Below are positions 54,113 to 54,552 of a DNA stretch of 64,000 bases, piece by piece (the first letter of the stretch is position 1; each line of letters opens with the position of its first letter). The DNA lies in NCBI RefSeq assembly GCF_013167455.1, contig NZ_CP038328.1; one strand, 5' to 3'. The DNA is from Escherichia coli O157:H7. GTDB taxonomy: Bacteria; Pseudomonadota; Gammaproteobacteria; Enterobacterales; Enterobacteriaceae. Below the pieces are notes generated by a model that saw only the letters and a program-made list of their open reading frames with translations, ran no database searches and was not told the origin of the DNA. The position numbers and the translations under genes were made by a program.

Positions 54113-54492
54113 AATGAATCCTTTTTCGATTTATGAGAATAAATACTCATTTAAGAGTGAAAACATTTTGCCTGCAAATGATTATCAGGAAATATAACAT
54201 TATCGAAGTATTCAAATTAACAGCTATTAAATAATATTAAACATTTTTAACGTAAACATTAAGAATATTCATCTTGTTATCTGTCTGTATTTTAACCAGA
54301 ATTAAATCAGTATTAGATGCCGTATGAATATCTCGAAATGTTGCTGTGTATCACATACAAATCATCACTGCAGGACCATAGTATTTACATAAGGTTTGTC
54401 CCCCGGAGGTAGTCATCGCAGCAATCGAGTAAATTAGCTTCACCACGGTATATTGTTTCCGTAGAATACCCATAATTATAAGAGAGGTTGTT

Positions 54493-54552
54493 ATGATTGA
54501 ACGTGAACTGGGGAACTGGAAAGACTTTATTGAAGTTATGCTTCGTAAGTAA
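54493..54552 (+). CDS. ypfM: 19-aa small protein YpfM
   Basis: ATG 54493 preceded by AGAGAGG SD, encodes MIERELGNWKDFIEVMLRK, TAA at 54550-54552; not in ORF track (below length cutoff); recognised from small-protein literature. Confidence 0.6.
   Translation: MIERELGNWKDFIEVMLRK

Follow-up and report, generated by a model that had tools for sequence, protein, structure and literature searches.

The spacer between yffB and ypfM of Escherichia coli O157:H7 as a divergent control region with a predicted second, activator-type promoter for ypfM

The window analyzed in this study is a stretch of 64,000 nucleotides whose source is the E. coli chromosome. Positions 53700-54700 of the window are identical (100%) to strain 2017C-4109, and most of this stretch is present at 95-100% identity in 5,411 of 5,426 complete E. 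coli genomes. In the RefSeq annotation, dapE (52625-53752) and yffB (53756-54112) are encoded on the minus strand, ypfM (54493-54552, 19 codons plus stop) is encoded on the plus strand, and acrD (54651-57764) is encoded on the minus strand, convergent with ypfM. The gap between yffB and ypfM (54113-54492) is 380 bp long with an A+T content of 68.9%, compared to 48% for the whole window, and A+T reaches its maximum of 84-86% around 54200-54275. An earlier note on this DNA had singled out the gap as the largest non-coding stretch of the window, about 70% A+T, preceding a 19-aa ORF with a good SD, with nothing else annotated in it. This description holds: no other annotated intergenic gap of the window reaches 380 bp (the runners-up are 324 and 310 bp), the SD sequence GAGAGG is found at 54482-54487, 5 nt before the ypfM ATG, and the gap is free of other annotated features both in K-12 and in the present strain. 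The annotation covered the window up to its final 1 kb, of which at most about 375 bp lie outside ypfG, so a longer gap is impossible there. The window is the reverse complement of K-12, and K-12 (NC_000913.3) coordinates are given by 2645359 minus the window position; the spacer differs from that of K-12 by 4 substitutions and 0 indels within its 380 bp.

For comparison between species, 80 loci were retrieved from species-representative genomes using YffB as the anchor, and ypfM was divergent from yffB in 72 of them. Patterns were counted in a set of 73 ypfM loci, and alignments of 40 species and of 54 sequences were used for conservation. The length of the yffB-ypfM spacer ranged from 202 to 1540 bp among species, with an A+T content of 60-70% in most. 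Repeats within the E. coli spacer were limited to short matches at chance level.

The end of the gap next to yffB is occupied by yffB's own transcription unit. SMRT-Cappable-seq data (PMC6131387 supplement) place a transcription start site (TSS) for b2471/b2472/b4547 (yffB-dapE-ypfN) at K-12 position 2591166, which is position 54193 of the window on the minus strand and gives yffB an 81-nt 5'UTR (54113..54193) with a conserved SD region next to the yffB ATG. The core promoter -10 region was read from the sequence at 54191..54204 on the minus strand, where GATAAT (54204..54199) overlaps an extended -10-like TGTTATATT (54199..54191). GATAAT lies 6 nt upstream of the TSS at 54193, a position that fits this start. 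Sequence comparison showed that TGTTATATT is common to the yffB promoters of Citrobacter, Enterobacter and Salmonella. The Salmonella yffB 5' end has been placed at -97 (reporter boundaries, PMC5137417), which is the homologous place, 8 nt downstream of TGTTATATT. The fold of the yffB 5'UTR was unremarkable (z = +0.48), no better than that of shuffled sequences, which suggests that it is unstructured. In the proposed arrangement, the minus strand yffB-dapE-ypfN promoter (around 54199-54204) would start transcription at about 54193 and produce an unstructured 81-nt 5'UTR. Because this promoter and its start belong to yffB, the first 90 bp or so of what had been taken as a spacer before ypfM are in fact part of yffB. 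A different yffB promoter, TTCATA-16-TTTAAT (54328..54301), was predicted by Shimada 2014; this candidate was rejected, as it is unsupported by the TSS at 54193 and is kept only in Escherichia and Citrobacter.

Between the divergent promoters lies the most AT-rich tract of the gap (54205..54329, A+T 70-86%). Positions 54130-54329 are poorly conserved in the 40-species alignment, and column identity within the tract is mostly below 50%. The yffB-ypfM spacer carries an "HNS" mark in the table of Shimada 2014 (PMC3946193), and taking this published mark together with the A+T content, 54205-54329 is probably an H-NS-bound tract between two divergent promoters. In the model proposed here, this fast-evolving, AT-rich tract (~54205-54329) would separate both promoters and would probably be coated by H-NS. 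The same observations could be read in a more extreme way, in which the entire spacer is filler, either neutral or gained by horizontal transfer, that H-NS silences, and any conserved block in it is functionless and results from chance or hitch-hiking. The unconserved and very AT-rich central 125 bp or so, the H-NS mark in the published table and the wide range of spacer lengths among species (202 to 1540 bp) would all agree with such a reading. However, a motif located between this tract and ypfM is conserved together with its spacings in more than 50 species while its flanks are saturated with changes, and filler is therefore a very unlikely explanation of the spacer as a whole.

The end of the gap next to ypfM contains a promoter, P1 (54439..54467, plus strand), composed of a -35 hexamer TTCACC (54439-54444), a 17-bp spacer and a -10 hexamer TAGAAT (54462-54467), with a predicted TSS at A54474. 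P1 was the sole promoter-like match of a consensus scan over 53900-54800, and it fits what is required of a sigma-70 promoter, with 9/12 hexamer matches to TTGACA/TATAAT and a spacer within the required 16-18 bp. The identical hexamer pair is given for ypfM by Shimada 2014 (PMC3946193) on the basis of a SELEX peak and predicted hexamers. A TAnnnT -10 element was found in 72 of the 73 ypfM loci, most commonly 25-26 nt before the ATG; its sequence is TAGAAT, TATAAT or TAAAAT in 57 of these 72 loci, and the promoter spacer is 17 bp in 59 of them. Just upstream of the P1 -35 is a conserved element, TCATCGCAGCAATCGAG (54413..54429, plus strand; consensus AATCACAGCAATYGG), which is located at -61..-45 relative to the P1 start and has a column identity of 70-90% in the alignment of 54 sequences. 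The predicted P1 start leaves ypfM with a 5'UTR of 19 nt, so no long leader can come from P1.

The one new item in the gap is what appears to be a second promoter of ypfM, P2, a deeply conserved activator-type promoter predicted from sequence and apparently absent from annotation. Alignment of ypfM loci identified a module, here called Box U (54337-54382), with the pattern AAT(A/G)TTGC-N6-TCACA-N21-CATA(G/T)T that is conserved across Enterobacteriaceae. The module is made of an activator-type site recognized by its conservation (AATGTTGC-N6-TCACA, 54337..54355, plus strand) and a predicted P2 -10 hexamer, CATAGT (54377..54382, plus strand), which is conserved as CATA(G/T)T. Of the 73 ypfM loci, 56 carry a strict version of the pattern, AATRTTGC-N6-TCACR-N20/21-CATAKT, for which the chance expectation is about 1e-7 per 400 nt. 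The internal gaps of the module are nearly constant in length: N6 is kept in all sequences, and CATAKT follows TCACA after 21 bp in 47/54 or after 20 bp in 7/54 (a few Citrobacter), while the intervening sequence is free. However long the spacer, Box U and the ypfM ATG are 160-176 bp apart, and the distance from Box U to yffB varies from 183 to 549 bp. Box U is thus tethered to ypfM and not to yffB, which suggests that it belongs to ypfM. The possibility that Box U is a minus strand promoter for yffB was rejected on the same grounds, as the fixed distance is kept toward ypfM and not toward yffB. Conservation of the spacer, one of the checks proposed in the earlier note, therefore gave a divided result, with Box U, P1 and the element at 54413..54429 conserved and the central tract poorly conserved. 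P1 is also present in Yersinia (Yersinia nurmii), Dickeya and Erwinia, which are without Box U, and in Cedecea neteri, with spacers down to 202 bp.

Several properties of Box U suggest that it includes a transcription start. If CATAGT is placed at -12..-7, the 14-bp sequence TTGCT-N4-ATCAC (54341-54354) is centered at -41.5, which is the position of the activator site in class II promoters, and P2 is without a usable -35 hexamer. Among 54 sequences, all have a pyrimidine as the sixth base after CATAKT and 50 have a purine as the seventh (an A in 45 of them), a pattern unique to that offset. P2 thus has an A at -11, a T at -7 and a Y/R step 6-8 nt downstream, as looked for in a -10 element and its start. 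In Cedecea, Dryocola and Buttiauxella the TCACA is kept, and CATAKT is replaced by TAAAAT, GATAAT or TAAGAT 20-21 bp downstream. Additionally, the distance between Box U and P1 ranges over 16 bp (108 to 124 bp) and shows no helical phasing, which argues for an autonomous module and not a phase-dependent upstream operator. Taken together, the Y/R signature at +1, the replacement of the -10 in other genera and the drift in distance to P1 support a real start at P2, and we consider it likely, with some reservation, that the predicted P2 is a genuine transcription start site. Its start would be A54389, which probably gives ypfM a leader of about 104 nt (54389..54492, plus strand). Against this reading, position -12 of P2 is invariably C, an uncommon base there for a simple -10 hexamer.

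From the conservation and geometry of the module we infer that P2 fires in E. coli, and the following arrangement is proposed. P2 would have CATAGT as its -10 and A54389 as its start, with a conserved putative protein-binding site in place of a -35, and an activator bound at -41.5 (AATRTTGC-N6-TCACA) would recruit RNA polymerase to it. The near-consensus sigma-70 promoter P1 (start ~54474) would lie within the leader made from P2, with its start 19 nt from the ATG. Transcription of ypfM in E. coli would then yield a longer mRNA of about 257 nt and a nested one of about 172 nt, both ending at the terminator shared with acrD. Since P1 is near-consensus, it may dominate in E. coli, with P2 being the minor promoter. 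The transcript-end and ribosome-profiling listings of Adams 2021, Stringer 2021, Ettwiller 2016 and Weaver 2019, as far as these extend, contain no entry at the coordinates of the spacer, a result that is uninformative for both starts. Two predicted nested starts 85 bp apart, the distal one activator-like and the proximal one near-consensus, resemble the tandem promoters of small-protein and sRNA genes, in which a constitutive promoter near the gene is combined with a regulated one farther away.

Data from Salmonella allow the size of the ypfM transcript to be compared with these predictions. The Salmonella sequence used was part of a chromosome that had been deposited as a plasmid (CP150497.1, here L084); among the best 120 YffB matches there was no Salmonella-named match. 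In L084, Box U is at 1818-1863, the predicted P2 and P1 starts are at 1870 and 1951, and the terminator ends at 2096, so that the predicted RNAs are 227 nt from P2 and 146 nt from P1. The -35 of P1 is degenerate in Salmonella (TTCTCT). The ypfM transcript of Salmonella, STnc250, was detected as a ~220-nt Northern band with about 4-fold enrichment in Hfq co-IP (PMC2515195), and the Northern probe (JVO-2405) maps to the ypfM 3'UTR at L084 position 2042. The band size is approximate and the evidence indirect, but it fits a transcript from P2 and not one from P1.

A different explanation is that Box U is a distal operator or enhancer of P1 or yffB, where a bound regulator would work through DNA looping or make contact from about -126, and that no transcript starts at 54389. 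The invariant tetramers TTGC and TCAC, 10 bp apart, are what would be expected of a transcription factor site, and CAGCAAT (54417-54423) beside P1 is the reverse complement of the Box U sequence ATTGCTG and could aid looping. P1 is also the ancestral promoter, being present where Box U is absent. Furthermore, a MarA ChIP-seq peak ("ypfM<>yffB") is centered on Box U. The center of this peak is 56 bp to the ypfM side of its listed motif ACCCAATTTGATAAA (L084 1776-1790), which puts it near position 1839 of L084, in the part of Box U that separates TCACA from the -10, in a mapping that assumes collinearity with LT2. This placement, which is indirect evidence, counts for an activator site at P2 as well. 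The peak is weak; it was found for MarA only, with a poor motif (p = 3.7e-5), and peaks for SoxS, Rob and RamA are not reported there. However, an operator acting on P1 sits poorly with a Box U-P1 distance that drifts without helical phasing, and it leaves unexplained why CATAKT is held at a fixed 21 bp, why there is a Y/R signature at +1 and why canonical -10 sequences take the place of CATAKT elsewhere. The ~220-nt Salmonella RNA also does not fit P1 (146 nt). A role for Box U as operator without a start is on this evidence rather unlikely, and Box U as part of a ypfM promoter is preferred.

The 380-bp spacer is therefore an unexceptional control region shared by two divergent genes. Its length is explained by the yffB 5'UTR and promoter, the AT-rich tract and the two tandem ypfM promoters, of which P2 is predicted. 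The model in its entirety, with the yffB promoter, the AT-rich tract, P2 and P1 as four functional blocks, is considered fairly probable. A single promoter near ypfM with nothing else in the spacer, which the earlier note had named as the case that would count against its reading, is not what was found, as yffB is transcribed divergently and the evidence that ypfM has a second promoter is good. For annotation, this means that the long spacer represents two divergent transcription units and tandem promoters, without a hidden gene.

The conservation of Box U could in principle reflect coding sequence. In Escherichia and Citrobacter, Box U is exactly covered by an ORF that begins with ATG (18-22 aa, MNISK(Y/C)C..SH), and in the window this ORF would encode a Cys/His-rich peptide of 22 aa (MNISKCCCVSHTNHHCRTIVFT, 54324-54392). 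However, this ORF has no SD and no Pfam match, and its start codon is absent in 20/60 sequences, with a length that otherwise ranges from 8 to 64 aa. In addition, Citrobacter has a 1-nt indel ahead of CATAGT that changes the reading frame, and the variable positions are without codon periodicity. A translated Box U ORF, or another small ORF in the spacer, is for these reasons the least credible of the explanations considered. The spacer ORFs at 54324-54392, 54317-54412, 54133-54234 and 54114-54197 were rejected as candidate genes, since none has an SD and none has a Pfam match, and no conserved upstream ORF was found in the spacer across species. The 75-aa ORF antisense to ypfM (54351..54578), which had been judged likely spurious, is present, and the checks are consistent with that judgment: the stop-free length opposite ypfM ranges from 35 to 170 codons among species, and there is no Pfam match.

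If Box U is an activator site, its geometry can be compared with known systems. At class II activator-dependent promoters the site is centered at -41.5, as in the CRP-dependent galP1 and in FNR-dependent promoters. P2 is similar to these promoters in that its site is at -41.5, a perfect TCACAT half-site lies 21 bp before the -10 and there is no usable -35, and also in that the spacer from the site to the -10 is constant in length and free in sequence. It differs from the CRP and FNR promoters of this class in the left half of the site, which is an invariant (A/G)TTGC, explained by neither protein, as opposed to TGTGA for CRP or TTGAT for FNR. Comparison by eye with consensus sequences gave agreement of Box U with the CRP consensus AAATGTGATCTAGATCACATTT at 13/22 positions; by half-site, the right half TCACA(T) is invariant and matches at 5/5 and the left half (A/G)TTGC matches at 2/5. 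For FNR (TTGAT-N4-ATCAA), compared in the same way, the E. coli sequence TTGCT-GTGT-ATCAC matches at 8/10 and the genus consensus TTGCT-N4-GTCAC at 7/10. The left half agrees with TTGAT at 4/5, and the FNR-conserved A4 and A14 are both C in Box U. The perfect promoter-proximal half-site TCACAT makes CRP the leading candidate for the P2 activator, a tentative one drawn from the motif and more doubtful than not.

Other features of the site point away from a simple CRP site. A second AATRTT(G/T)C copy is found 10 bp upstream of Box U in Salmonella and Citrobacter, and the invariant TTGC together with this second copy suggests a protein other than CRP or in addition to it. The invariant tetramers TTGC and TCAC, spaced 10 bp apart, would suit a monomer of the AraC family with two HTH motifs, and such a protein is a possible activator of P2. 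Within that family, Box U is like the marbox of mar/sox/rob promoters in the 10-bp spacing of its invariant tetramers and in that the MarA ChIP center falls on the Salmonella module. It is unlike the marbox in that the RE1 position reads GC(A/T/C)(G/A) and not GCAC, which is not conserved. The marbox consensus AYnGCACnnWnnRYYAAAYn (compared by eye) was not found in the Salmonella module, where the best alignment agrees at about 9/14 positions and lies 17 bp from the -10, with 18-19 bp expected. Comparison of Box U, again by eye, gave no convincing fit to sigma-54, sigma-E, sigma-32, sigma-28, MerR-type long-spacer or PhoB sequences, nor to the PurR, CytR, RcsB, Lrp, IHF and Ada motifs. P2, if real, offers a handle on YpfM biology, since the protein that binds AATRTTGC-N6-TCACA would indicate the condition in which YpfM matters.

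The suggestion in the earlier note of a long AT-rich leader before ypfM is for the most part not upheld. The 380 bp are not one leader, as they include the yffB 5'UTR of about 80 nt and about 125 bp of unconserved sequence; what is left is a predicted ypfM leader of at most 104 nt from P2, and this candidate leader is the least AT-rich part of the spacer. The related suggestion of a regulatory leader or sRNA context was correct in that the spacer appears to hold uncatalogued regulatory content in the form of P2 and the STnc250 transcript is already known, and incorrect in that the RNA showed no conserved structure. For the spacer, or its ypfM-proximal part, to act on translation or termination of ypfM as a riboswitch, thermosensor or attenuator, a leader such as the 104-nt one that exists if P2 is real would be needed, and the MFE fold of the E. 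coli sequence does pair 54399-54423 of the leader with the ypfM start region. However, the fold of the leader and start region was no better than that of shuffled sequences (z = -0.41), and RNAalifold on 29 species returned 13 pairs, 0 of them covarying, at -4.2 kcal/mol. In a search of 54113-54492 against Rfam at E <= 10, the only match was the eukaryotic snoRNA SNORD94 on the opposite strand (13.6 bits, E = 6.4), which is not credible, and the terminator scan found no terminator-like site or attenuator in the spacer. What conservation there is in the leader coincides with the DNA elements of P1. A structured leader is thus highly improbable, and tandem promoters remain the preferred account of this part of the spacer.

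The product of ypfM is a genuine small protein. Top-down mass spectrometry has detected intact YpfM, carrying a formyl-Met and covered at 100% (PMC12529367). Few proteins of this size in E. coli are detected as reliably, and the peptide is conserved in 73 loci. Its sequence, MIERELGNWKDFIEVMLRK, is hydrophilic, with 8/19 residues charged and no hydrophobic stretch. A small toxic peptide, another context that had been offered for the long spacer, is not supported, since a peptide this charged and hydrophilic does not resemble type I toxins. A type I toxin-antitoxin system was rejected for the locus since there is no hydrophobic peptide, no structured UTR and no antisense promoter/terminator pair.

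The ypfM transcript is an already known Hfq-associated small RNA-like mRNA, STnc250 of Salmonella. The 3'UTR (54553..54645, plus strand) was delimited by the terminator scan and inverted repeats and contains a hairpin (54577-54599) and an intrinsic terminator (54613-54645) shared with the convergent acrD. The full Rfam STnc250 model (RF01409, 1-94) aligns to 54532-54651 with 37.5 bits (E = 4e-5), where the gathering score is 42. E. coli shares with Salmonella STnc250 (RF01409; Sittka et al. 2008, PMC2515195) the ypfM gene, the terminator and the 19-aa ORF, in clear synteny. The 3'UTR of E. coli differs by carrying one more hairpin (37 nt, compared with 13 nt at this place in the model), and this hairpin accounts for the score below the gathering threshold. 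The STnc250 family covers the 3' half of ypfM only and so lies outside the 54113-54492 spacer. The fold of the ypfM transcript gave z = -2.57. Synonymous codon identity is 76% in ypfM as opposed to 56% in the neighboring yffB, and the rare codons GGG and CTT are fixed in ypfM. A more speculative and improbable proposal is that ypfM is a dual-function RNA, in which P2 would produce a ~250-nt Hfq-associated transcript, the leader and the constrained 57-nt CDS would act as a base-pairing regulator or sponge, and the regulator at Box U would be, for example, an orphan protein of the CRP/FNR or AraC family. The long and short ypfM mRNA isoforms might also differ in their control by Hfq or sRNAs. 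In one clade (L033, L046 and L057), P1 is missing and a canonical promoter, TTGACT-N18-TATTAA, is found about 100 nt upstream of the ypfM ATG, so that a ypfM leader of about 100 nt recurs there by a different route.

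The coding sequence of ypfM (54493-54552) is, in the comparison across species, under unusually strong constraint at the nucleotide level. Synonymous codons were identical to those of E. coli in 76% of cases (795/1043), compared with 56% (2618/4703) in the neighboring gene yffB. Rare codons were almost fixed, with GGG at Gly7 in 66 of 72 sequences and CTT at Leu17 in 57 of 72; all these counts ignore phylogeny. This constraint may reflect either translational tuning or a function at the RNA level.

The short 5'UTR of ypfM (54474-54489) is near-invariant between genera (CATAATAATAAGAGAGG). 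Adjoining the Shine-Dalgarno sequence, most species carry a run of A-R-N triplets (AAU AAU AAG AGA), which in E. coli is broken by a single U (AAU UAU AAG AGA). Judged by their sequence, these triplets would suit binding by the distal face of Hfq and would fit the reported Hfq co-immunoprecipitation. Further upstream, a conserved element with the consensus AATCACAGCAATYGG was found at 54413-54429, corresponding to -61 to -45 of P1, the predicted proximal ypfM promoter. In some species this element is a perfect palindrome (AATCAC-A-GTGATT or ATCGC-A-GCGAT). It also contains CAGCAAT, which is reverse-complementary to the ATTGCTG of Box U, the conserved activator-type module approximately 76 bp away. 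The element could be an operator or a looping partner. Three loci (L033, L046 and L057) that encode a YpfM variant, MIDTELGHWKDFIE(Q/L)MLRK, have neither Box U nor P1 at the locus. A canonical promoter (TTGACT-N18-TATTAA) is found approximately 100 nt upstream of ypfM in this clade, which suggests that a leader of about 100 nt is produced there via a different promoter.

The 3'UTR of ypfM contains a hairpin with an 11-bp stem (AAGAACCCGCT/AGCAGGTTCTT) at 54577-54599 that is not part of the Salmonella-based Rfam model of STnc250, the Salmonella ypfM transcript; the model has 13 nt where E. coli has 37 nt. It is because of this extra hairpin that the E. coli sequence scores below the Rfam gathering threshold for STnc250. 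In the terminator scan, the same hairpin additionally scored as a weak terminator-like site on the minus strand. A second hairpin at 54613-54645, detected by both the terminator scan and the inverted repeat search, has a perfect 12-bp stem between A-runs and T-runs, and is a bidirectional intrinsic terminator common to the convergent genes ypfM (plus strand) and acrD (minus strand). It also gave weak terminator-type Rfam matches to CsrC and STnc240/320.

Within E. coli, K-12 differed from the window at 13 of approximately 900 positions over the yffB-ypfM locus, and the GTDB representative of E. coli (L004) at 144. One E. coli genome carries an IS1 insertion in yffB, adjoining the spacer, and the intergenic region at ypfM has served as a host-informative marker (PMC11267920). 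The divergence of the GTDB representative, the insertion and the marker use indicate that the spacer is highly polymorphic; despite this, the invariant positions of Box U are retained.

On the yffB side, the E. coli 5'UTR contains a small palindrome (ATGAGAATAAATACTCAT) at 54133-54150. The homologous Salmonella sequence (positions 1575-1592 of L084, chromosomal fragment CP150497.1) carries a proposed Fur box, GAAATTCGAATAAATAAT, and yffB expression was 2.6-fold up when a fur mutant was grown anaerobically (PMC3212961). In Salmonella, the validated targets of the sRNA SdsR also include yffB (PMC5137417). Additionally, the SMRT-Cappable-seq listing gives a second transcription start site for dapE-ypfN at K-12 position 2591560 (window position 53799, minus strand), which is an internal promoter inside the yffB coding sequence.
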